Shown here piece after piece: positions 7,029 to 19,058 of a DNA stretch of 64,000 bases. Positions within the stretch are counted from its first letter, which is position 1. Every line of letters begins with the position of its first letter. Origin of the DNA: a virus (taxonomy: Duplodnaviria; Caudoviricetes); IMG/VR virus record IMGVR_UViG_3300025053_000003, positions 1-64,000 of that record; one strand, given 5' to 3'. A model generated the notes under the pieces. The model saw only the letters and a program-made list of their open reading frames with translations. It had not been told where the DNA came from and did no database searches. Position numbers and translations under genes: made by a program.

Positions 7029-7973
7029 TTATTGTGAACGTGCAGCAAACCAAAAACTACTACTTGAATTAAACCATCTTTGCCAAATTTCTCTGTTGTG
7101 GTTAGTTTTACCATGACAACTAGAGCATAAAGTTATTAAATTATCATCATCCGAATCGGTCTTTATATAATTTTTATGATGAATAACTAAAAATATTTTC
7201 TTGTTCCCTTTTCTTCCACAAAGTTGGCAACGAAAGTTGTCTCGTTTCTTTATCTTCTTTTTAAGTCTTTTATTAAAACTAGGAGAATATTCACCAAAAG
7301 ATATTCCTCCTAACCAAGTTGAAGATCCTTCACCAGTTTTACCAATTGACAAGCATTCATCAGAACAGTAAAATTTAGAGTGCCTTTCTGACACTGCTTT
7401 TGTTACCATTTTCCCCTTTTCGCATACAGAACATTTTACTTCTACTTGCGAAAAATTAGGATGATTCTCTCCTTGCCAATTTAAATGTTGCCAATTGTGT
7501 AAACACTTCCTATAACAAAAACAATTTTCTTTATTCTCTAAATCTTCCGGCCTAACAAAAATAATTTCATTACAATTTATGCAATTTGTTTCTACTTTAT
7601 TCCTGATATGATTTAAATAACACTTCCTAGAACAAAAACTTCCGTTTGTCTTTTTGTGTTCGTACTCTTTTCTTTTAAAATCACTACCGCACCCATCACA
7701 GGTAAGTGTCACATTTTTATATGATGATAAACATTTACGACTACAGCAGAATCTTTTATTTTTACGCTTATCATATCTTGACTTGTGAATCATAAATACT
7801 GTTTCACAATTTTCACAAATTACTTCTACTTGTTTAAACTTATCATTATTCCTACAAGTAGTATTGCAATAAAATCTTTTTGTTTTATTGGCGTTGTATG
7901 CCCGTTCAGTAATAATCTTTGGTTTGCCGCACGTTTCACATTTTACTTCAATTTTATTCGCTCTTTTACCCAT
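7029..7973 (-). CDS. HNH endonuclease with tandem CxxC...FCSxxC zinc-finger repeats
   Basis: Repeated CxxC/FCSxxC units; C-terminal RDNFRCQLCG..IHHKNYIKTD..NLITLCSSCHGKTN. Confidence 0.9.
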   Translation of the reverse strand: MGKRANKIEVKCETCGKPKIITERAYNANKTKRFYCNTTCRNNDKFKQVEVICENCETVFMIHKSRYDKRKNKRFCCSRKCLSSYKNVTLTCDGCGSDFKRKEYEHKKTNGSFCSRKCYLNHIRNKVETNCINCNEIIFVRPEDLENKENCFCYRKCLHNWQHLNWQGENHPNFSQVEVKCSVCEKGKMVTKAVSERHSKFYCSDECLSIGKTGEGSSTWLGGISFGEYSPSFNKRLKKKIKKRDNFRCQLCGRKGNKKIFLVIHHKNYIKTDSDDDNLITLCSSCHGKTNHNREIWQRWFNSSSSFWFAARSQ

Positions 7974-8078: not shown

Positions 8079-9332
8079 TTACCGAGCCTCAAGAGTTACA
8101 ATCGGGGAGATTGTAGTTGCTGTGGATTGAGGAGGTGTGACTGCTGATTTCCAGGCGCAACTTCCGTCCATTCTGAAAACGAATTTATACGCTGTTTGGT
8201 CTGCGTCGAATTTTAGATGCACAGATGAACTATAAACACCATTTGCTTCTGCGCCAGCTTTAATTGCAACATAATACTGACTCCAATCTACAAGAATGAT
8301 ATCACCAGCAGAAGAAAGTGCAGAACAATGCTTGTTATATACAACTGGAAGACCCATCAAAGTATCAAATGGGCGACCGGCGGCCCCATTAGCCGGGAGC
8401 CAGACAGGAATTCCGCCTGTTCCTACGGCCATGGACATAGTGGCAAGGGTCGGGAGGCAAGCAGGATTTACCATCCAGATAGCATTTACCTTATCATTAA
8501 TACGGGTGTACATATTAAGGATATTCTCGAAGAGAATAGTATTTGCGCCCTGCCCAGTTTCCTTAGAAACGGTAACAAGAGCAGCAGAATTTAAGATCCC
8601 TTGCGGCTTACCAGCACCTGAGCCACGAATTAGAGCATCATTCATCTCAAAAGTCAAGGCGTCACGGAAAGAATCACGAAGAATAACTTCCATGGAAGCA
8701 GGGCTATCAGAGATCATTTCGTCAGTAACGAAAGCCATCAGGCCGAGTTTCTTCAGAGAAAGCCGGAGCTTACCGAACTTCATAGAGCTACCAGTGTGGG
8801 TGTCCTCTTCGTCCATCCAGGTGGCCTGAACATTACCATAAGTCTTGCCGGAACTCTCATCAAAGCCATTTACATAAGGCATTTCGATGGTGTTACGCTG
8901 AAGGGGGACCTTCCGAGTCCGACCGAATGCAAGGTCTTCCTGCATAACGGGACGCAGGAGATCAGAACTCCACTCAGGCGGGATAAGATAAGCACCAGCT
9001 TCGTTATCAGTAACATTCTGAGACGGAGAACCAGCAGCTTTGGTTTCCCACTTCTTCAACTCTTCAGAAACATTGCCGCGATTAGCCTTATAAACGTGAA
9101 CACCGAAGTTGCTCAAAGTTTTAAAGCCAGCAGTGGGGTCTTTGTCAATAGGGTCAGCACCCACCTGAATCCGCTGTTCAATCGGCTCAACAGCCGCCTT
9201 GATCTTAGCGTCAATTTCAGTAGCAAGTGCTTCCTTAAACTTAGCAACAGCCTCATCCACAACGCCAACCGCGCCCTTCGCAATTACTTCATTCAATTCT
9301 TCAACGGTCATAGTTTTCTTTTCAGTATCCAT
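8079..9332 (-). CDS. Major capsid protein, HK97 fold
   Basis: 417 aa; coiled-coil delta domain, AGAYLIPPEW, GSGAGKPQGIL, TLMGLPVVYN, FDADQTAYKFVFRMDG. Confidence 0.95.
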   Translation of the reverse strand: MDTEKKTMTVEELNEVIAKGAVGVVDEAVAKFKEALATEIDAKIKAAVEPIEQRIQVGADPIDKDPTAGFKTLSNFGVHVYKANRGNVSEELKKWETKAAGSPSQNVTDNEAGAYLIPPEWSSDLLRPVMQEDLAFGRTRKVPLQRNTIEMPYVNGFDESSGKTYGNVQATWMDEEDTHTGSSMKFGKLRLSLKKLGLMAFVTDEMISDSPASMEVILRDSFRDALTFEMNDALIRGSGAGKPQGILNSAALVTVSKETGQGANTILFENILNMYTRINDKVNAIWMVNPACLPTLATMSMAVGTGGIPVWLPANGAAGRPFDTLMGLPVVYNKHCSALSSAGDIILVDWSQYYVAIKAGAEANGVYSSSVHLKFDADQTAYKFVFRMDGSCAWKSAVTPPQSTATTISPIVTLEAR

Positions 9333-9439
9333 TATTTAAATCTCCTTTATCTCTTTGTTCGTTTGTTTAGATCGCCTAACATCTCTTAAATGTCTCCAGC
9401 GAAAATTTTCCTTGACGGAATGCTATTTTTATCGTATTG

Positions 9440-9479
9440 TTAAAATGGGAGGGTATACTCAGTCTTCCTCCCATTTTAA
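9440..9479. terminator. 13-bp hairpin between protease and capsid genes (terminator or mRNA stabiliser)
   Basis: TTAAAATGGGAGG-N14-CCTCCCATTTTAA. Confidence 0.55.
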
Positions 9480-9491
9480 AATTAAACTATG

Positions 9492-12026
9492 TTATTCAAA
9501 CTCAATAATACCTTTAGCCATTTTAATTCTGTCTTCTACTATTTCACTGATATTAATTTTACTGAATACTTCTTTTAAATTCTTAGTAAAAATATCCTGT
9601 ACCTGTTCAGGAGTAAAATTTAATTCGGTTTCTTTTTTAGTTGAAGTTAAAAATTCTACCATTTTAGTTTCAGGCATTTGGATTTCTAATCCTTTCTTCT
9701 TATTACTTCTTACATCGATAATTAATTGCCGTTGTGCTTTCATTTGATCTAAAGATTTAACAAGCGCCTCGTCGATAGAAATGTTTAGATCTTCAGCAAT
9801 CATCTTTGCAAATTCCACTAATTCTTTTAAATGAGAACCAGAATATCCAGCAGTCTCTTCCGCAAATTTCTCTATTATTACCTTATCGGCATAATCAACA
9901 AAAAACTTTAATAATTTAATTCTATTTTCTTTATTTGGTAAAGAAAAATTTATAATATGGTGAAATCTACCTGGGCGATCAATCAATGCTTCTGGCATTT
10001 GCTCAGGAAAATTTGAAGTTAAGACAGTTAAAACGCCTTTATTGTCTCTAATCCCATCCATTTCAGTTTTGAGAAGATCAATCGTATAATCTTTCAACCA
10101 AGTATCAATATCTTCAAGAAAAAATACAGAAGGAGCAAGATCCCTTGCCATTTCAAAACCAAGAGCTAATGCACCAGCAGCCCCATATCTAAAATCTTTA
10201 GAAGATGCCCAAATAAAAGTAGTATCAGGCTGATTCATCAATACCTTACCAGTCATCGTCTTGCCTGTCCCTGGGGGGCCGATAAGCATAATCCCTCTAC
10301 TGGGGGAAGTCTTAGTAAGTCTATCAATGCTACCTTTGACTTTATTCTTCGCTTCTTCATCAGGGAAAATTACATCATCCCAACCAATTTCTTTTTTATC
10401 AAGAAATTCTCCCATAATAGAGAATTTTTCACCTTTCAGTAGATTGTTTTCTTTTACCCACTGAATGGCATCCATAGCAAATGATTTATTTAGTTCAATA
10501 TTTTTATCGGTAGTATAAATATTAATCCCATACCCACCCCAATCTGGTTCAATCTGGAATACAAATCTTTCACCAGAATCTGCTTTATAAAACTGTGTCC
10601 CTTGAGTTAAGAATTCTTCTGATCTTTTTGAATTCAACTGGATAACTGAATGGCGAAGAGGAATTTCCCCACCATTTCCATACAAATTCCTCTGATCTAA
10701 TAATTCGTGTTTAGTTAGTGAATTTCTAAAGCCAGATAAATAATTACCTTTCATTGCGCTAGGGATAAAGAAATCAGTAACAAACATATTCTTGATTTTG
10801 CAATTCAGGAATTTACAGAAGACCTTTAGTTCAAAACCAGCAGGTTCAGTTCTTACTGAAGTAATATCAAATTCTTCTTCGCCATACTGTTTTGAGATAA
10901 TTTTCTTATCTTCATCAGAAATATCTTTAATCTTGCAAGATTTCAGAATATTTGTTATTCTATCTACTTCTTCTTGAGTAACCTTTTCTACAGTCGCTAC
11001 TGATTCAATACTCTCTTCTTTTTGAACTTCTAAGATAATATCATTGATTTCTTTTTTAATGCTTTTAACTTCGTCTGTCGCTTTTTCTTCGACGACATCA
11101 ATAGTTTCTGGTTCAGCTACTTCTCCGATTTTCTCTATTTCATTAATAATTTCAAGGTCTAAACCTTTTTCTTCGGCGTCTTCAAGGACTTCCACATTTA
11201 CTATTTTTTCAATTGGTTCAGCATCTTCGACAGTCTCAGTCTCTACTACTGGTTTAGCATCGACAACTTCTTCAATCGTTTCTGATTTTTCTTCTACTGC
11301 ACCTTCGTTTTCTACGGTTTCCTGAACCTCTTGTACCTCTTCGATTACTTCTTCTGGTTCATCAAGTGATTTTTCACTGAGGTTAATAAATCCGATTACT
11401 TTTGCTTTATCTTCCATTGGGAAATCCGGTAGAGAATCCGGCTGGGTGGAGAGGAGTTCGATATATTCTGGGGAGGATTTAGCGTCTTCTGCGAAATCCA
11501 TTACACACTTAGTCTTAATCATGCCAGAAGCAGATCGTTCCACCAGCGCATTCATGTGATCAGGGACAACTGCTGCGCTTACCTCAAACAATTCCACTTT
11601 CTTGTAAACCCGATTAGGCAATTTTCCATTCCTATTATATTTAATAATATCTGCTTCTTTAAAATCTTCCCTTTCGAGATAGTCAAACGCACGGAAGCCC
11701 ACAGAGAACGCATTGAGCACCCCATCCCGGTACAGCTCATAGAATTCTTGTCCTTCCAAAGTTGAAGCGAACTTAACCTTGAATTTTAAGCCTTGTCCCG
11801 GAATTACCCGTGCCCAAAGTGCTTTACCGATAGGAGGCCTGTCATATTGATGGAACGCGGGGATAACCGGATTTTTCAAAAAGTTCTCTAAATCCCAAGC
11901 TTCGTCTTCGATAAGGTCGCCTGACCTGTCAATGGAGTCTGACTTATTTGCCCATGCAACTACTGATTTCTCTTCGTCATTCACTTCCTTTTTAAAGCAA
12001 GTGGCGAACATTTTATTTTCAATCAT
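9492..12026 (-). CDS. HK97-type prohead protease fused to an acidic linker and an AAA+ ATPase
   Basis: N-terminus FHQYDRPPIGK, LNAFSVGF, LFEVSAAVVP; Glu-rich linker; GPPGTGKT, FFLEDID, LTSNFPE, ALIDRPGRF. Confidence 0.9.
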   Translation of the reverse strand: MIENKMFATCFKKEVNDEEKSVVAWANKSDSIDRSGDLIEDEAWDLENFLKNPVIPAFHQYDRPPIGKALWARVIPGQGLKFKVKFASTLEGQEFYELYRDGVLNAFSVGFRAFDYLEREDFKEADIIKYNRNGKLPNRVYKKVELFEVSAAVVPDHMNALVERSASGMIKTKCVMDFAEDAKSSPEYIELLSTQPDSLPDFPMEDKAKVIGFINLSEKSLDEPEEVIEEVQEVQETVENEGAVEEKSETIEEVVDAKPVVETETVEDAEPIEKIVNVEVLEDAEEKGLDLEIINEIEKIGEVAEPETIDVVEEKATDEVKSIKKEINDIILEVQKEESIESVATVEKVTQEEVDRITNILKSCKIKDISDEDKKIISKQYGEEEFDITSVRTEPAGFELKVFCKFLNCKIKNMFVTDFFIPSAMKGNYLSGFRNSLTKHELLDQRNLYGNGGEIPLRHSVIQLNSKRSEEFLTQGTQFYKADSGERFVFQIEPDWGGYGINIYTTDKNIELNKSFAMDAIQWVKENNLLKGEKFSIMGEFLDKKEIGWDDVIFPDEEAKNKVKGSIDRLTKTSPSRGIMLIGPPGTGKTMTGKVLMNQPDTTFIWASSKDFRYGAAGALALGFEMARDLAPSVFFLEDIDTWLKDYTIDLLKTEMDGIRDNKGVLTVLTSNFPEQMPEALIDRPGRFHHIINFSLPNKENRIKLLKFFVDYADKVIIEKFAEETAGYSGSHLKELVEFAKMIAEDLNISIDEALVKSLDQMKAQRQLIIDVRSNKKKGLEIQMPETKMVEFLTSTKKETELNFTPEQVQDIFTKNLKEVFSKINISEIVEDRIKMAKGIIEFE
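9883..9910 (-). promoter_or_regulatory. Sigma28/FliA-type promoter inside the protease gene, facing the capsid gene
   Basis: TAAA-GTTTTTTGTTGATTAT(16)-GCCGATAA. Confidence 0.6.
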
Positions 12027-12030
12027 TATT

Positions 12031-12297
12031 TTATTCCTCCTTGTTCTCGTCTTTATCTTCTTTCTCTACTTTTCTTATTTCAACTTCTCCGTACAATTCT
12101 TCGGTTTCCAGTTCGTCATCTTTTATAATAAGTTTTCCATCTTTATCTTCTTTAAATTTAAGAATATATCCCAATTCTTCATCAGCAGTCCTACAATAAT
12201 TTACTTTAATTCCATTCAAAAATGCCGTATATTTGTAAGCCTTTGGTGTATAACCAATATCATCTTGATTTACTGATGCTCTCATTTTAAGCCTCAA
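12031..12297 (-). CDS. Hypothetical protein (likely start ATG 12285)
   Basis: ORF packed directly upstream of the protease gene. Confidence 0.65.
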   Translation of the reverse strand: MRLKMRASVNQDDIGYTPKAYKYTAFLNGIKVNYCRTADEELGYILKFKEDKDGKLIIKDDELETEELYGEVEIRKVEKEDKDENKEE

Positions 12298-12463
12298 ATT
12301 GTCCTAATTTATAATCCTTCTTCTCGTCCGTGTGCAGGCAAATACCTTTTATAATAATTGGTTTATATTCATAACTTTTATTAAAATCATATTTAATGTT
12401 ATTCGAACAATTTTCACATGCCTTTGGATTTGTATAAGGTAGAGTGCAATTACATGTTCTCAT
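12287..12463 (-). CDS. Small Cys-rich protein (58 aa, not in the ORF track)
   Basis: MRTCNCTLPYTNPKACENCSNN...; GGAGG RBS; fills the gap between neighbours. Confidence 0.6.
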   Translation of the reverse strand: MRTCNCTLPYTNPKACENCSNNIKYDFNKSYEYKPIIIKGICLHTDEKKDYKLGQFEA

Positions 12464-12464
12464 T

Positions 12465-13691
12465 TTATTCCTCCCAACTGACCCACTCTTTATTAGTTAA
12501 TTCTTTATCTTCAATTCTAATAGGCAGATTAAATGTAATACCATGAACAGGGTGTGTAATAAAGAAATTTTGGGTAGGTGGTTCAAATGGATAATTCCCC
12601 TTCGCTGCATATTCACTAAATCCAACCAATGAACCGTTGCATATACACCGTTGAGCAAATGTCATAGATTGATGGAAGTGCCCAATCAATAATACATCGT
12701 AATCTGCATTCATTGACCTAGCAGAAGAGCGTTTCTTCATGTCACCGCGCAAAATCGGTCCAAGCGCGCCGAGGATTCCGTTTCCACCGGAAAATTGCGA
12801 ACCATGTGTGATTCTATAAGTGTAATCGTACACCTTATATTGAGCATCTTCACCATCTGCAATTAAAAATTTAATTCTTTTGTCATTTTCAAAGAACTTA
12901 GCAAGGAGTTGATATTGAAGCCAGTCCATTGAATCGTATGCGTACCCCTTCGCTCTCGGTTTAAGAGTCAATCGCCCATGATTCCCGGCTACACAGGGAA
13001 CAAATACCTTCCCAAATGAATCAGCTAATTTTTTAATTGCTTCAATCATTGCATCTAAAAGTTCAAGGCTCACTTGTAATACTTCTTTTTCACCTGTTAT
13101 CTTCAATTCGTCATGAATGAGTCCAGTGCTGAGGTCACCAAGTAGAGGGACAATGATCCCTGGATACTTAGCATTAGCTATATGATTAAATGATAAATCA
13201 ATAGCTTTATCAACCACTACTTGCAATCTATGTTTAGCAATTTCAATATTGTATTTATTTACTCCGAATATCTGGTCAGGATCAACCACCTCTCCAAAAT
13301 GCAGGTCGCTAATACATAAAGTAGGTACTCCAATCGTCCCATCATTAAAATTTGACTCTTTACTTAGCCATTCTGGGATGATATGATTGGAATCTTTTAA
13401 ATTGAGAATAAATCTCTTTATATATTCAGCGGAAACGCTATTTTTATTTGCTTCCACTAATTCTTTTCTTAAGTCCTGGATTTGTGATTTAAGGATAAGT
13501 GTTTCGTTACCATTTTCTGATTGTACTTTAAAAATTTCTTTGTATCTTGTGTTGTTTTTAGCCCGCCTCAAGTGGTTGCGTACTGTTGTTCTGGGAAGGT
13601 TAAGCTCCCTGGCTGTTGCTCTGGCGTTTTTATCCAGTTTCAGGAATGTTTCAACAATCAATTCTTGGATCTCTTGTGATTCTGTAGTCAA
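12465..13691 (-). CDS. Calcineurin-like metallophosphoesterase with N-terminal HTH
   Basis: SDLHFGE, LLGD, VAGNHG, ITHG, LIGHFH; N-terminal ARATARELNLPRTTVRNHL. Confidence 0.85.
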   Translation of the reverse strand: MTTESQEIQELIVETFLKLDKNARATARELNLPRTTVRNHLRRAKNNTRYKEIFKVQSENGNETLILKSQIQDLRKELVEANKNSVSAEYIKRFILNLKDSNHIIPEWLSKESNFNDGTIGVPTLCISDLHFGEVVDPDQIFGVNKYNIEIAKHRLQVVVDKAIDLSFNHIANAKYPGIIVPLLGDLSTGLIHDELKITGEKEVLQVSLELLDAMIEAIKKLADSFGKVFVPCVAGNHGRLTLKPRAKGYAYDSMDWLQYQLLAKFFENDKRIKFLIADGEDAQYKVYDYTYRITHGSQFSGGNGILGALGPILRGDMKKRSSARSMNADYDVLLIGHFHQSMTFAQRCICNGSLVGFSEYAAKGNYPFEPPTQNFFITHPVHGITFNLPIRIEDKELTNKEWVSWEE

Positions 13692-13707
13692 AATTTTTCT
13701 CCCTTAA

Positions 13708-14655
13708 TTATGACTTATTAAAGCAATCTTTATGGGTATGATGTGAGCGACAGACTAAAATCTGGTGGCTCATATTATCCGCTTCATTTAAATATAAAGA
13801 AACCATTAAATTATGATGAATAAATAAGTCTTTCTGATCAAATTCTACACCGCAAACTTCACAAAAATTATACCCAAACTCATCTAATTGCAATTGGAGC
13901 AACATTTCTCTATTCAAATCCTGATTACACCTAGCTTGTATTATAAGATCTCTCTGCGATTTTGGCAGAAATTTTGCTTTAAAAACATCACACTCCTGCT
14001 TACATTTTTGTGAATCATATAAGTGACATTCTTTCCCATCACTAGTATTAAGTGATGTTATCCTGTTACTTACTTCCCTTACTGTAGGATAAAAATATTT
14101 ACCACATTTAAAACATTTACATAACATGAAGCCATGCTCATTTTCAATTGGAGACTCCTCAACTGTTAACCTGTCAGCAAACGTTTTAAATAACGCCTTG
14201 CCATTAGCATATTTTTTCTTTTTTAAAACCAATTCGTCTTTATTTTCAATTCTATATTTCTTATTATATTCCGATTTTTTATCTTTATTGACCTCGTATA
14301 ACTTACGCGCCGCCAATAATTTCTTCTCTCTGTTTCTATAATACGAAAGTCTTTCCTTTTCCCTTATTCTGTCTCTATTTAATTCTCTCTTTTCCTTACT
14401 TTTCTTAGAAATATATTCCTTATTCTTTTTAGTGTAATTCCTTTGTCTTTCTTTTATATATTCTGAATTTTCTAAATATACTTCTTTGCTTTTCTTCAAA
14501 AATATTTCTCTATTATTTTCATAATATTTTCTTTTATTTTTAGAACAACATTCTTTGCAGTCAGTCCTCCTCCCATCACTAGAACCTTCTCTTCTGTAAA
14601 ACTCTCTTAACTCCTTTTCTTCTCCACATTTTGTACAAACTTTCGTTTCTTCCAT
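13708..14655 (-). CDS. HNH endonuclease (N-terminal CxxC..CxxC, basic coiled coil, C-terminal HNH)
   Basis: KVCTKCGEEK..CKEC; FCEVCG..FIHHNL..NMSHQILVCRSHH. Confidence 0.85.
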   Translation of the reverse strand: MEETKVCTKCGEEKELREFYRREGSSDGRRTDCKECCSKNKRKYYENNREIFLKKSKEVYLENSEYIKERQRNYTKKNKEYISKKSKEKRELNRDRIREKERLSYYRNREKKLLAARKLYEVNKDKKSEYNKKYRIENKDELVLKKKKYANGKALFKTFADRLTVEESPIENEHGFMLCKCFKCGKYFYPTVREVSNRITSLNTSDGKECHLYDSQKCKQECDVFKAKFLPKSQRDLIIQARCNQDLNREMLLQLQLDEFGYNFCEVCGVEFDQKDLFIHHNLMVSLYLNEADNMSHQILVCRSHHTHKDCFNKS

Positions 14656-14754: not shown

Positions 14755-16140
14755 TTATCTATTTAAAATTTCCTTCATCTTCTCAGGTGACGATACAACA
14801 TTCCCTTCGCCTGTGCCTTCGGCAATACTAGCTAAAAGGCCAGATGGGGTTGTAAAGTTAACTGGGATAAAAGGCTGTTTAAACACGCCACCAAGTTCAG
14901 GTAATCCAAGTTTATCTCTTTCTTCGTCTACTGAAGTGATTGAGGTTTGGATGTGTTTTACGCTTTGATTCAACTCGAACAATTTATCAGATGGTATACA
15001 ATTATCATAAGCGACGAAAAGCTTTTCGTCATAACGCCAAATCATCTTCTCATTTAGTTTTTCTTCAATCCTTCTAAGCCTTGGCTGAATAGTAAACTGC
15101 ATAAATGTCGCAATGGCAGCATCAGCATTGTTCCTATTGGCCTCTGAGCTGTACATACCCAATGCTTGCCCAAACGCATTAAGCACAGCCTCTTTGATCC
15201 TGTCGCGCCCTCCTAGGTATGACATATCCTTTGGAGAATTGTTCGTGAAAGGTTTGTACTTCAACCCATGATCAAGGAGGGGCATAGAACCACCTTTTGA
15301 CGCACCGCCTAACATTTGTTTGATCTCAATTTTCAGACGTTCAAACTCATGGTCTCCTAACTCGGAATCAGTTTCAAAAACACCATTTAGATTATTTCCC
15401 CCATTCCTGAAAATCGCGGCCTCATATTCATTAATGGATTTAGCTAATCCATATTCTTCCGCGATACTAGTGACGGGGCTACTTCCATAATATTGATTCT
15501 TTGGGTTGGGCATTTTAAAATGGATAATTGAGCGTTCTGATAAATCAATCTCTTCTGTACTTTTTATATACTTGTACCCAGATATAAACTTCTTAGCATC
15601 TGGCATTATTTTACAATTTTGAGGGGGGATCAACCAAATCTCCCTTGGGACCCCAAATTTATCCTCTAATATATGCCAGAAAGCGTTTCCTGTCAACTCC
15701 TGATACAGCTGAGTCATTTCGAACAAATCAAAGGAATTTACAAATGGGTTTACATTTGTTTTCAGATCTAAAAACGGATGGTCAAGCACCTCTTCGAAGG
15801 ATGATGCCTTTCTAATAGCAGGAATATTGTTCAGGAATGGATTTTCTCTTATGAATCTTTCCTGTTTTATGTCAACTGCTTTCGTTTGTACTCGTTTTAC
15901 CCTTTGGCTTTTGTTGTTCTTCGCAACATAAAGTCTCAATGGTGTATTCGCTACAGTCGAAGCATTCTTATTCGATGCTACATAAATCCACGACCTGTAG
16001 CTGTTTATCATTGCATAAAAATCTTCATCACTATGCAACTCTCTCCCATATTGATAGGGATACAGGTAAGGAAGCAAAGCCCCCTTCCTCTTTCCCCCGG
16101 CAGCCTTTAACTGTACTTCATATGAAAATGGATTAGCCAT
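14755..16140 (-). CDS. Portal protein, HK97 family
   Basis: 461 aa; YQELTGNAFW, SIIHFKMPNPKNQYYGSSPV, FRNGG, PLLDHGLKY; position after terL. Confidence 0.95.
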   Translation of the reverse strand: MANPFSYEVQLKAAGGKRKGALLPYLYPYQYGRELHSDEDFYAMINSYRSWIYVASNKNASTVANTPLRLYVAKNNKSQRVKRVQTKAVDIKQERFIRENPFLNNIPAIRKASSFEEVLDHPFLDLKTNVNPFVNSFDLFEMTQLYQELTGNAFWHILEDKFGVPREIWLIPPQNCKIMPDAKKFISGYKYIKSTEEIDLSERSIIHFKMPNPKNQYYGSSPVTSIAEEYGLAKSINEYEAAIFRNGGNNLNGVFETDSELGDHEFERLKIEIKQMLGGASKGGSMPLLDHGLKYKPFTNNSPKDMSYLGGRDRIKEAVLNAFGQALGMYSSEANRNNADAAIATFMQFTIQPRLRRIEEKLNEKMIWRYDEKLFVAYDNCIPSDKLFELNQSVKHIQTSITSVDEERDKLGLPELGGVFKQPFIPVNFTTPSGLLASIAEGTGEGNVVSSPEKMKEILNR

Positions 16141-16143
16141 ATG

Positions 16144-16923
16144 TTATCCTTCGATTGTATTTGGTATAATTTGAGTATTGTTGATTCTATCTTTAGCTAT
16201 ATTAAAATAGGTTAAATCTTTTTCTATTCCTATAAATTTTCTACTTAAGTTTTTACATGCTACGCCTGTTGTGCCACTGCCCATTGTAAAATCTAATACG
16301 GTTTCTGATTCATTTGTATAAGTTTTAATTAAGTATTCCATTAATGCTACTGGTTTTTGGGTGGGGTGAATAGTCTTACCTTCGCTTTTTATTTCTATTA
16401 CACAAGTGGGATAATTTTCATTTTTACATGTATATCCAGAAGTATGGTTAGTTTGTGATTCTCTATGATATTTAAGATCGCTTGTGTTCTTGTTTTGTTT
16501 AACAATCGTAGTTCCTGGCCTTATTCCTTGAGGATTATAATTCATTCTCTTTTCCCCGGCTTGCAATAAGTGTCCAATAATTCCCTTAGAAAATACACAA
16601 ATATTCTCGGTTATTTTTAATGGCATATTAGGAGCATGTGGAAAATTACTCCCTTTGCTTTTCTTCCACACCCAATCATATTTGTACATTTTTATATTAC
16701 TCATCCGTAATGCACTACTAAACGGTTCACTGCCGAACAATACAATAGCACCATTAGGTTTAATAACCCTCTTTAGCTGCTCCCACATAGCCTCAAACGG
16801 GATAACTGAATCCCATTTACAAGCAGTAGTCCCGTAAGGAGGATCGGTGATAATAGCATCTACACTCCCATCAGGAATGCCTTTCATTACTTCTAAACAA
16901 TCACCTTGATATAGATTTATCAT
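16144..16923 (-). CDS. N6-adenine/N4-cytosine DNA methyltransferase (beta class)
   Basis: GDCLEVM, TDPPYG, HPTQKPV, VLDFTMGSGTTG. Confidence 0.92.
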   Translation of the reverse strand: MINLYQGDCLEVMKGIPDGSVDAIITDPPYGTTACKWDSVIPFEAMWEQLKRVIKPNGAIVLFGSEPFSSALRMSNIKMYKYDWVWKKSKGSNFPHAPNMPLKITENICVFSKGIIGHLLQAGEKRMNYNPQGIRPGTTIVKQNKNTSDLKYHRESQTNHTSGYTCKNENYPTCVIEIKSEGKTIHPTQKPVALMEYLIKTYTNESETVLDFTMGSGTTGVACKNLSRKFIGIEKDLTYFNIAKDRINNTQIIPNTIEG

Positions 16924-17355: not shown

Positions 17356-19058
17356 ATTCTTAAAGCGGCAAATTTATCATCACTTTTGCCGCTTAATTTC
17401 TTCTTAATCGTTTTTTTATCACTTACTTTGATTTTGCCAGAATTAGGATCTTCTTTATAGTCATAACATAACATCTGACAAAATCATTCTGCATCTTCAG
17501 GTAACATAGCTGCTGGTTCTTTTTTTAACCATTCAGCCACCGCCCATGCAAGTTCATCCCTTGTCAGGGCCAGCTTTCCAAATTCACACTTTTTATTACT
17601 TGGAGAACTGACATATACCTTTCTAATGTTGAAATGAAGTCTCTTCATTTCTTTGTGACACATAGGACATTGAAATATTGTAGTATCAAGATAGGTTTTA
17701 TTAACTCCTTCGCAACTAATATTTTCACACTGCCAATAAAACATTGAGCTTACTTTCGGCGGAATAGCTGCACCGATACCATCTGCCTCAACCTGCGCCT
17801 GTAATGCATTAAGATCACAATAAGTTTGAGCTAATCTATCCGCAGATCTATCAAGATTTATCCCAGACCACGGAATAAAACTAGAAACAAAATTTCCATA
17901 TTTTATTGCAATACACGAGTCATCTGCGCCTTCATCTGCGACATCCATCCCGAGTATGGGTCTAATTCCATTTGTTGCCTGATCGCCATATTGCGCTTTA
18001 TACAATTTCCATCTTGTAAACGCATTATCAATGTCAACTTCATTAAATAGTGCATTTTGACTAGCGGCAGGGTATCGACCTAGTGTAATCGTTGCAAATT
18101 GAGAATCTTTTATTCTTCTCCATCCTCCCTCCAATGGTGGGTAAATTTTACCTGAGCTTGAAACACCTACAGCGCCTACTAGGCAAGATGGAACTTCAAA
18201 ACAATTAATCTCATCGGGTTCTTCATCTTCTCTAACTGGAACAGTCCATTCCATAATACGTTGAATCGTTTTATCCCGGCTAACTGCCCCATGTATTACT
18301 TCTTCACCAGTGACAACATTCGGGTGATTCAGTGCATTTAAATGAACTATATGTCCTAATTTATCTTTCCAAACCTTATAAGTATAACCAGATTTTTGGC
18401 GGGGGTTATATAACATTAAAAGACGAACGTGACTACCGCTAAGGCAGCCGTCAATCGCTTCAAAAATTTCATCGGGACACCCGTCAGCCTCATCTACTAT
18501 GTACAGTTGGTATTTGGCGTGCTTGCCGCTGAAGGACGCTTTTCTGCGTTCTGGGGTTCCAGATGTAGGTATTGCCTTCCCGATTAAAAAATGTTTTAAA
18601 TTTATATCATCGTCATCATCCTTTGCATTAACATCATCAGTTATTTTTAACGTAGTCAATACATGATTTTTAAATAATGATTTTTTATACCTATAAAAAA
18701 CATTTGCTATTTCACTAAACAACCCCTGTTTTAAATTTTCTTCTGGTGGAGCCGCAGCACAAATTACCTGAGAATCAGGGAAGCATAAATAAAACCAAGC
18801 TGCCAAATGAGAAGCGATAAATGTTTTGCCAGTCCCATTCGATGACATAGCCAAGGTAATTTTATTGTCCTTTACACTATTTGCCACCCGAATTAAATCA
18901 TCATATAAATTTTTAACACCTAATTCTTTTTCTAAAAATTCAATCGGATTTTCTTGGTATTTTTTTAAGTCTCCATGGAGTAAATTAGCTACTTGGTCTT
19001 CTCCAAATGCACTTATTAAATAATCTAATGCTTGATCGTCTAAATTTGTCATTAACAA
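17310..19058 (-). pseudogene. terL: Large terminase with an in-frame TGA at 17484-17486
   Basis: SSNGTGKT, IVDEADG, LYNP, GMDVADEGADDS; frame stays open after the TGA for 57 codons including GKIKVSDKK..SDDKFAAL. Confidence 0.85.

Follow-up and report, generated by a model that had tools for sequence, protein, structure and literature searches.

The assembly of HK97-like procapsids and their proteolytic maturation are the textbook case of energy-free self-assembly, in which ATP enters only at DNA packaging. The head proteases of the HK97 gp4 type (MEROPS S78, PF04586), which include long protease-scaffold fusions and fusions with the major capsid protein (MCP), act independently of ATP, and gp4 has about 225 amino acids (aa). 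FtsH and Lon carry an ATPase and a protease in one polypeptide. Bcs1, an AAA protein of mitochondria that translocates the Rieske protein in its folded state, and Bacillus subtilis YjoB have a chamber in which they act on folded proteins, as chaperones or translocases, and they do not thread their substrates (PMC9565160, PMC7994207). YjoB is an ATP-regulated, substrate-specific holdase whose N-terminal domain forms a very stable hexamer (PMC9565160). Here we describe a gene of an uncultured groundwater virus (Caudoviricetes) that joins a protease of the gp4 type to an AAA ATPase. It lies on the minus strand at 9492-12026 of a stretch of 64,000 nucleotides (positions 1 to 64,000 of IMG/VR record IMGVR_UViG_3300025053_000003), and the whole of this stretch is called the window below. 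The virus record containing the window has 74.7 kb and a CheckV completeness of 58%.

The open reading frame (ORF) has 844 codons, no internal stop and a stop codon at 9492-9494, and its product is the polyprotein P0001. It adjoins the MCP gene on the upstream side of the latter. The order of the genes on the same strand is TerL, portal, protease-AAA gene and MCP, which confirms the original prediction, made with no mention of the strand, of an 844-aa ORF in the protease slot with the MCP gene directly downstream; the same slot between portal and MCP was seen in related loci. The only S78 match in the 74.7-kb record is this gene. Its parts are as follows.

9492..12026, minus strand: whole gene, 844-aa prohead protease/AAA polyprotein P0001 (ORF; bridging contigs)
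11472..12026, minus strand: HK97-type S78 serine protease, residues 1-185 (Pfam PF04586; folded in the model)
11703-11705 and 11850-11852, minus strand: codons of Ser108 and His59, which lie with Glu148 in the S78 domain
10872..11471, minus strand: acidic disordered spacer, residues 186-385 (predicted local distance difference test score, pLDDT, <50; charge; alignment)
10329..10871, minus strand: N-domain of the cassette, residues 386-566, alpha/beta fold, always directly N-terminal to AAA
9717..10328, minus strand: classical-clade AAA ATPase, residues 567-770 (PF00004)
9495..9716, minus strand: C-terminal module, residues 771-844, common to AAA-less protease-scaffold relatives

The protein shares with the gp4-type proteases the N-terminal domain with catalytic Ser and His, the position between portal and capsid genes, an MCP with a delta domain, and a C-terminal tail that is common to AAA-less relatives. 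It differs from gp4 in about 590 aa, made up of the spacer and the N-domain+AAA cassette, which are inserted between protease and tail. The reading that we favour, with a probability of roughly 0.4, is that the cassette would provide an accessory, ATP-driven chaperone of assembly or maturation that works inside the procapsid by gripping and releasing folded protein.

We checked whether the gene could be an artefact, either a chimera of the assembly, as the original prediction had allowed for, or a read-through of two genes. The stretch is present in 17 metagenome runs, of groundwater or soil, that come from 8 studies; none of these is listed as an RNA run. Contigs with zero differences cover 9628-12300 (run X1) and 9642-12300 (run X8). 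In run X14, which carries no flag as a possible source, the contigs 9645-10399, 10432-11606 and 11719-12300 jointly bridge the AAA/N-domain, N-domain/linker and linker/protease junctions. All junctions are bridged without differences by contigs of several runs and studies, and hundreds of independent contigs have this architecture. These data contradict a chimeric assembly and leave an artefact with practically no probability; the gene is real. A 1654-nt contig of run X14 that skips 9912-11358 was considered as a deletion allele and rejected, as it belongs to a different, AAA-less phage like the one at locus L087.

The HK97 protease domain with His, Ser and Glu, the acidic linker, the unassigned domain and the AAA+ module with its four quoted motifs, which had been read from the sequence in the original prediction, were all located. 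Peptidase_S78 (PF04586) matched residues 22-169 with 31.6 bits against a gathering cut-off of 21. Among the relatives, S108 is kept in 138/139 and E148 in 132/132, and H59 in 104/139, with Gln at this position in 26 distant relatives. The NCBIfam equivalog TIGR01543 gave 23.9 bits, which is under its cut-off of 59, and the protease is thus a divergent member of the Pfam family and not an equivalog. The acidic linker (196 aa, residues 190-385) contains 32% Asp+Glu, has a net charge of -41 and is predicted to be disordered. Among the relatives this spacer is hypervariable in length and content, with IKSSxEYIEL and EKAKxxGFIxL as conserved islands. The N-domain, modelled alone with AlphaFold2, had a pLDDT of 84.

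PF00004 matched residues 579-695 (E 7.5e-19), and there was also a weak AAA lid match. The Walker A motif GPPGTGKT is at residues 583-590 (10257-10280), FFLEDID at residues 635-641 (Walker B as VFFLEDID, 10104-10127), TSN with the sensor-1 N672 at residues 670-672, and RPGRF at residues 684-688 with R684 and R687 of the second region of homology (SRH). The full-length AlphaFold model has a folded protease (1-183), a disordered stretch with few helices (185-386), a folded alpha/beta domain (398-527), the AAA domain (557-777) and a flexible part (775-806) before two terminal helices. In the C-terminal module the flexible stretch carries short [IV][DE]F-type repeats, and the two helices are followed by a terminal ...RIKMAKGIIEFE tail. 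A transmembrane segment was not found in the protein, the best 19-residue Kyte-Doolittle mean being 1.19.

The features of the classical AAA clade are all present (PF00004, Walker A, sensor-1 Asn, and an SRH with two Arg). K589, T590, E638 and D639 are kept in 154/154 relatives, and N672, R684 and R687 in 151/151. This complete conservation of the ATPase motifs, taken with the protease Ser in 138/139, indicates that both enzymes are clearly under selection. The Walker B motif reads ED instead of DE (VFFLED) in all 154 of the 154 relatives, none of which has the classical hhhhDE form. ED in Walker B is exceptional and is common to YjoB and Bcs1, both of which are still active (PMC9565160). At pore loop 1, residues 613/614 can be Y, R, H, K, S or W; F612 is kept in 127/154. 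The conserved aromatic-hydrophobic-Gly pore loop 1 of unfoldases was not found across the 154 relatives. Bcs1 also has non-canonical pore loops (PMC7994207).

A Foldseek search of the PDB with the full model gave B. subtilis YjoB (7w42/7w46, E 1.5e-11) and many entries of the Bcs1 heptamer as the best matches. The alignments with YjoB and Bcs1 had about 390-400 columns, corresponding to N-domain plus AAA, whereas those with other AAA proteins mostly covered the AAA part only. The nearest named clusters of the ESM Atlas include BCS1_N (0.79-0.83), and these are leads only. Because of the ED Walker B, the fold of N-domain and AAA, and the variable pore loop, the unit reads as one that works like a chambered chaperone or translocase of folded proteins of the Bcs1/YjoB type. 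In common with Bcs1 and YjoB it has one AAA domain, otherwise of the classical clade with SRH, behind an alpha/beta N-domain whose fold may be similar to theirs. Bcs1 proper has an N-terminal transmembrane anchor, which the phage protein lacks, and unlike both proteins the phage unit is embedded in a protease polyprotein.

The pore loop and the fold also bear on the first mechanism in the original prediction, an unfoldase-protease that strips the delta domain. In such an ATP-dependent protease the ring would unfold delta domains or scaffold and thread them into the protease of the fusion, much as FtsH or Lon do but with the two domains in reverse order. Protease and AAA do share one chain, in both orders and in hundreds of lineages; the ATPase motifs are intact, as are the SRH arginine fingers; among solved structures the nearest AAA domains by sequence are those of the unfoldases Cdc48/p97, VAT, PAN and FtsH; and the pore-loop Gly (G615) is kept in 121/154, preceded by an aromatic residue in the subfamily to which the window's protein belongs. 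However, the pore-loop-1 aromatic is not conserved, and the ED Walker B and the fold match YjoB and Bcs1, which do not thread. The 200-aa disordered spacer lies between protease and ATPase, so that no stacked chamber is apparent. Protease and ATPase are on one polypeptide as in FtsH and Lon, but their order is reversed, the protease fold is unrelated (assemblin-like S78), the pore loop varies, and the ATPase is dispensable, as described below.

The architecture is widespread among uncultured phages. A word-based search found 13 further full-length protease+AAA proteins on different contigs (818-1088 aa, 28-61% identical). With residues 380-570 as the query, phmmer against 1.84 billion representatives gave 273 clusters at E<=1e-3, of which 231 were at E<=1e-10. 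Custom hidden Markov models were then run on 146 listed representatives and the family. This census yielded 127 proteins with the order S78, N-domain, AAA; two that are permuted (N-domain, AAA, S78); and 26 with N-domain and AAA and no detectable S78, several of these being fragments. An alternative protease family was not found in the relatives without S78 that have long N-termini. In IMG/VR at least 120 loci encode relatives, usually with the MCP gene directly downstream, and among the best 80 of these at least 120 loci the fused gene is present in 67. At L044 and L078 a separate N-domain+AAA gene lies directly upstream of the protease gene and abuts or overlaps its start; these split-form ATPase genes are among late head genes, and their products have no tail.

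A tblastn search with the whole protein found no fusion in 50,697 cultured-phage records, where the matches were to separate proteases or AAA proteins with at most 24% coverage. A scan of 185,579 species genomes found the fusion on 6 contigs, mostly short, all of them from metagenome-assembled genomes and none from isolate hosts (Melioribacteraceae, Cloacimonadota, Saccharibacteria, Aenigmatarchaeota, Actinomycetota and Pirellulales). The original prediction had asked whether the architecture was already common and characterised. It is common, with at least 273 clusters and at least 120 IMG/VR loci, but it is uncharacterised, as no description of a protease-AAA fusion was found in the literature. 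The new results presented here are a read-level check of the junctions, the number of gains and losses counted on an MCP tree, a 530-bp module of tail and delta domain, and a Mantel test of tail against delta domain.

Some members have further insertions. Inteins (Pfam Intein_splicing) are found within the AAA domain of P0181 (residues 518-902) and P0207 (residues 592-874). At L073:5678-11785 an IMG/VR member of the family has an ORF of 2035 aa whose N-domain is interrupted. Relatives with 1270-1460 aa have long extensions at the C-terminus, which had no Pfam match and are not capsid fusions. In a second subfamily (L027:10284-12677, L036:5756-8137, L014:10938-13325 and others) the protease-AAA gene is followed by two tandem HK97-fold capsid paralogues of about 440 and 355 aa, in place of the single MCP elsewhere.

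The N-domain+AAA unit is an optional, dispensable cassette between protease and tail. Both the protease domain and the C-terminal tail recur in AAA-less relatives, namely P0015, P0017, P0018 and P0020 (467-612 aa). P0003, which has the cassette, and P0015, which lacks it, are 95% identical over residues 1-210 and 93% identical over the last 67 aa and have the same gene order. The difference between them is about 450 aa of N-domain and AAA in P0003 and a 66-aa helical segment in P0015, which occurs also in P0017. A scan of IMG/VR for the MCP family, in which each lineage was scored by the protease gene upstream, distinguished 13 unique lineages with the ATPase (AAA+) and 20 without it (AAA-). 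All AAA+ rows of the MCP tree lie in a single well-supported clade, whose 18 members include 5 AAA- rows. The unit also exists by itself: structurally similar stand-alone N-domain+AAA proteins of about 440-510 aa are found in phages and bacteria, so the unit can work alone.

Other small conserved modules occupy the spacer slot of several relatives (P0006, P0007, P0010, P0011, P0013, P0014, P0015 at about residues 236-306, and P0017/P0020). They include an 'HHIPV...YLFDV...EEAKKWV' domain, Cys-rich KKPCKQEGGEC repeats, a DUF7129-like Zn ribbon and a '...GARGG...DR..YNHL..HY..F' domain, and these small modules have no Pfam assignment.

The exchange of the cassette for a helical segment would fit an oligomerisation module. 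If the unit acted in the cytoplasm, before or during nucleation of the shell and outside the closed shell, it could fold or solubilise capsid protein or bundle six or seven tails into a multivalent scaffold. A coiled-coil segment would substitute for it in AAA-less relatives, and ATP would control only the assembly and release of the ring. The 66-aa segment of P0015 and P0017 is in line with this, as is the holdase YjoB with its stable N-terminal hexamer. The conserved arm with F386, D387 and P395 has no structure in the monomer model, as expected of an arm between subunits. Bundling alone, on the other hand, would not need the 100% conservation of the hydrolysis residues. This explanation overlaps with the favoured one and is hard to separate from it by sequence; we regard it as improbable.

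The optional nature of the cassette agrees better with a second proposal of the original prediction, a moron ATPase carried in by the protease, than with an unfoldase-protease, and this part of the prediction retains some standing. The interval between protease and tail would be a cargo bay, and any occupant would be packed into the procapsid. The ATPase would be cut free, stay in the head with the DNA and be ejected into the next host. There it would reassemble and serve as a chaperone or remodeller before phage gene expression, for example against host defence or in the refolding of co-ejected proteins. The cassette is optional and swapped among close relatives, the same slot houses unrelated modules (the 'HHIPV...YLFDV' domain, the Cys-rich repeats, the Zn ribbon and the P0017/P0020 domain), and stand-alone homologues exist, all of which would suit cargo. 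In P0243 an ATP-dependent DNA ligase domain (residues 302-449) directly precedes N-domain and AAA, and no S78 domain was detected in the first 300 residues of P0243. A folded AAA domain would also be unable to leave through the capsid pores.

There are described parallels in the T4 proteins IPI-III and Alt (processed by gp21), in the tail-directed encapsidation of HK97 and in the cargo-loading peptides of encapsulins. As in these systems, a short terminal peptide would load the passenger into an HK97-fold shell, a head protease is available for its release, and the passenger varies between relatives. Here, however, the passenger is a part of the protease chain and an AAA ATPase. Other observations fit poorly with ejected cargo. 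The split forms have a separate late ATPase gene without a tail, which is odd for an ejected protein that acts early unless it is bound by the protease. The cassette unit is near-neutral or slightly acidic (net charge -6), whereas the internal proteins of T4 are basic. The ATPase would also have to unfold for passage through the phage tail and then form its rings again. We consider ejected cargo, the main rival of the favoured reading, possible but doubtful.

Entry of the ATPase into the procapsid would depend on the C-terminal tail and its presumed partner, for which the following features are relevant.

8079..9332, minus strand: MCP, 417 aa, N-terminal delta (scaffold) domain of about 98-112 aa (Phage_capsid residues 113-400, E 5.5e-40)
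9159..9688, minus strand: recombination module, 530 bp (96.2% DNA identity with AAA-less L087, L087:4814-5335)

The Phage_capsid match begins at residue 113, which leaves an N-terminal delta domain of about 100 aa. K98-A99-A100 of the MCP is invariant in the alignment (K98 codon at 9039-9041) and is the likely maturation site. In many members, whether or not they have the cassette, the terminal helix leads into a final ...[KR]xxG[KR][VIM]x, as in RAKGIIF, MRGKVL and LRGKVT; two other types of tail are found in other lineages. The 530-bp module contains the last ~65 codons of the protease-AAA gene, the intergenic region and the first 58 MCP codons. The last 60 residues of the protease polyprotein and the first 58 of the MCP are identical between the window and L087, whereas identity is 45% in the protease domains and about 45% in the remainder of the MCP. 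The breakpoints of the module coincide with the domain borders.

The co-transfer of tail and delta domain is accompanied by co-variation. In 33 unique loci the identity of the tail correlated with that of the MCP delta domain (rho 0.44), and the partial correlation was 0.35 when MCP core and protease domain were controlled for (Mantel p<=5e-4). The correlation of the tail with its own protease domain was only 0.06 (rho). The work of Duda, Oh and Hendrix in 2013 reportedly found that the C-terminal tail of the HK97 gp4 protease directs its encapsidation. By analogy, the most economical reading is that the tail docks on the delta domain of the MCP, and the C-terminal module is presumed to be a capsid-targeting element. 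Co-variation and co-transfer together suggest that the ATPase probably enters the procapsid. HK97 and D3 proheads contain about 60-90 copies of the protease (PMC12749128), so ten or more rings per particle would be possible.

Several smaller features of this region were also observed. Between AAA and the tail helix there are one to three short [IV][DE]F[EN][IL]K-type repeats in both AAA+ and AAA- forms, such as MVEFL and ELNF in residues 771-844 of the window's protein and IDFEIK in relatives (P0008 at 805-845, P0015 at 485-520). The 'EKAK' island that follows the protease is similar to the K-A-A that is invariant in the MCP. Judged by their sequence, these repeats and the island may be cut sites or docking motifs. 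At L028:2996-3523 the scaffold-like C-terminal part with its ...KLRGKVT tail is a separate 175-aa ORF, and a 197-aa ORF lies between the protease-AAA gene and this downstream tail ORF; the polyprotein can thus be split at its C-terminal border too. A second stretch, 13551-13823, near the start of an endonuclease VII-like gene, is 96% identical to L087:1-274 with flanks that are 74% identical or unalignable, and looks like another recent mosaic exchange.

On the favoured reading of a procapsid-internal chaperone, the tail would dock on the N-terminal helix of the MCP delta domain, and protease and ATPase would co-assemble inside the procapsid in tens of copies. The N-domain+AAA parts would assemble as rings of six or seven subunits around an internal chamber, like those of YjoB and Bcs1. 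These rings would spend ATP on gripping and releasing protein that is folded, or partly so, and would not thread it; their likeliest substrates would be either the bundles of delta domains or the protease domain. In this way they would time the clearance of the procapsid interior, or bring it to completion, ahead of DNA packaging. The protease would then cut the MCP and the polyprotein, possibly between Lys and Ala. We propose that the cassette is an accessory that improves or modulates assembly and not a core requirement. In the split and permuted forms, too, the ATPase stays next to the protease among late head genes, which favours a role in assembly over one in early infection. A further possible reading is an ATP-consuming step before packaging in the head assembly of a large group of uncultured phages, in which Bcs1/YjoB-like rings tethered to the inner capsid wall by the protease tail would grip and release delta bundles or cage the protease, and ATP hydrolysis, instead of self-assembly alone, would time assembly, protease activation and scaffold clearance. 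We put this forward tentatively, as possible but doubtful.

A number of results weigh against the favoured reading. The N-domain alone aligned with Bcs1 9gs2_A at Z 6.2 (root-mean-square deviation 3.4, 101 aligned), which ties with unrelated folds and is below the guide value of Z 8, and its Z-scores fall within the range of chance fold matches. Pfam gave no match to the N-domain alone at E<=10, BCS1_N included. Bcs1 and YjoB were absent from the top 60 PDB sequence matches of the AAA domain, which by sequence is closest to Cdc48/p97 D2, VAT, AFG2, Rix7 and the i-AAA protease; among NCBIfam families no AAA family passed its own cut-off, and the domain scored against the FtsH and PAN models. 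The length of the MCP, and hence of the delta domain, does not visibly differ between AAA+ and AAA- lineages. Linkage could contribute to the co-variation of tail and delta domain, which are about 160 bp apart. A folded ring could not exit through the capsid pores and would have to be digested or remain in the head. Finally, the dispensability of the cassette is odd for a maturation factor. The MCP tree needs at least 5 changes of cassette state, of which well-supported branches force at least three, and in the AAA- sister L095 (an 81-kb record, 86% complete) N-domain and AAA were found nowhere.

The state changes and L095, together with the protease domain that is 95% identical and occurs without the ATPase, are not compatible with an obligate coupling of ATPase and protease. 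With the Bcs1/YjoB hallmarks they weaken the proposal that the protein is an unfoldase-protease for the delta domain, to which we give only a small chance.

The neighbouring genes of the head module are listed here.

17484-19058, minus strand: large terminase (TerL)
16144-16923, minus strand: DNA methyltransferase
14755-16140, minus strand: portal
13708-14655, minus strand: endonuclease VII-like (Endonuclease VII/Lar-like) gene
12465-13691, minus strand: conserved 408-aa gene
between the 408-aa gene and the protease-AAA gene, minus strand: 88-aa gene
7029-7973, minus strand: HNH endonuclease, beyond the MCP gene

The product of the 408-aa gene has a weak PucR-type helix-turn-helix at its N-terminus and a match to phrog_284 ('exonuclease'). 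A counterpart of 409-410 aa is found between portal and protease in all close relatives. The slot between portal and protease is often taken by MuF-like head proteins. The endonuclease genes at 13708-14655 and 7029-7973 flank the protease and capsid genes on either side. They look like homing-type insertions, and other genes are found at these spots in relatives.

Natural pairs that differ in the cassette, the tail common to both forms and the exchanged tail/delta module make the role of the ATPase testable by co-expression in Escherichia coli, for which the host is not needed. If the Bcs1/YjoB-like reading is true, a viral branch would be added to a rare type of chaperone whose bacterial role is barely known. 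A strictly conserved ATPase within the head protease of hundreds of phage lineages would imply either that control or clearing of the shell includes a new step that depends on energy, or that these virions carry a new class of pre-loaded protein.

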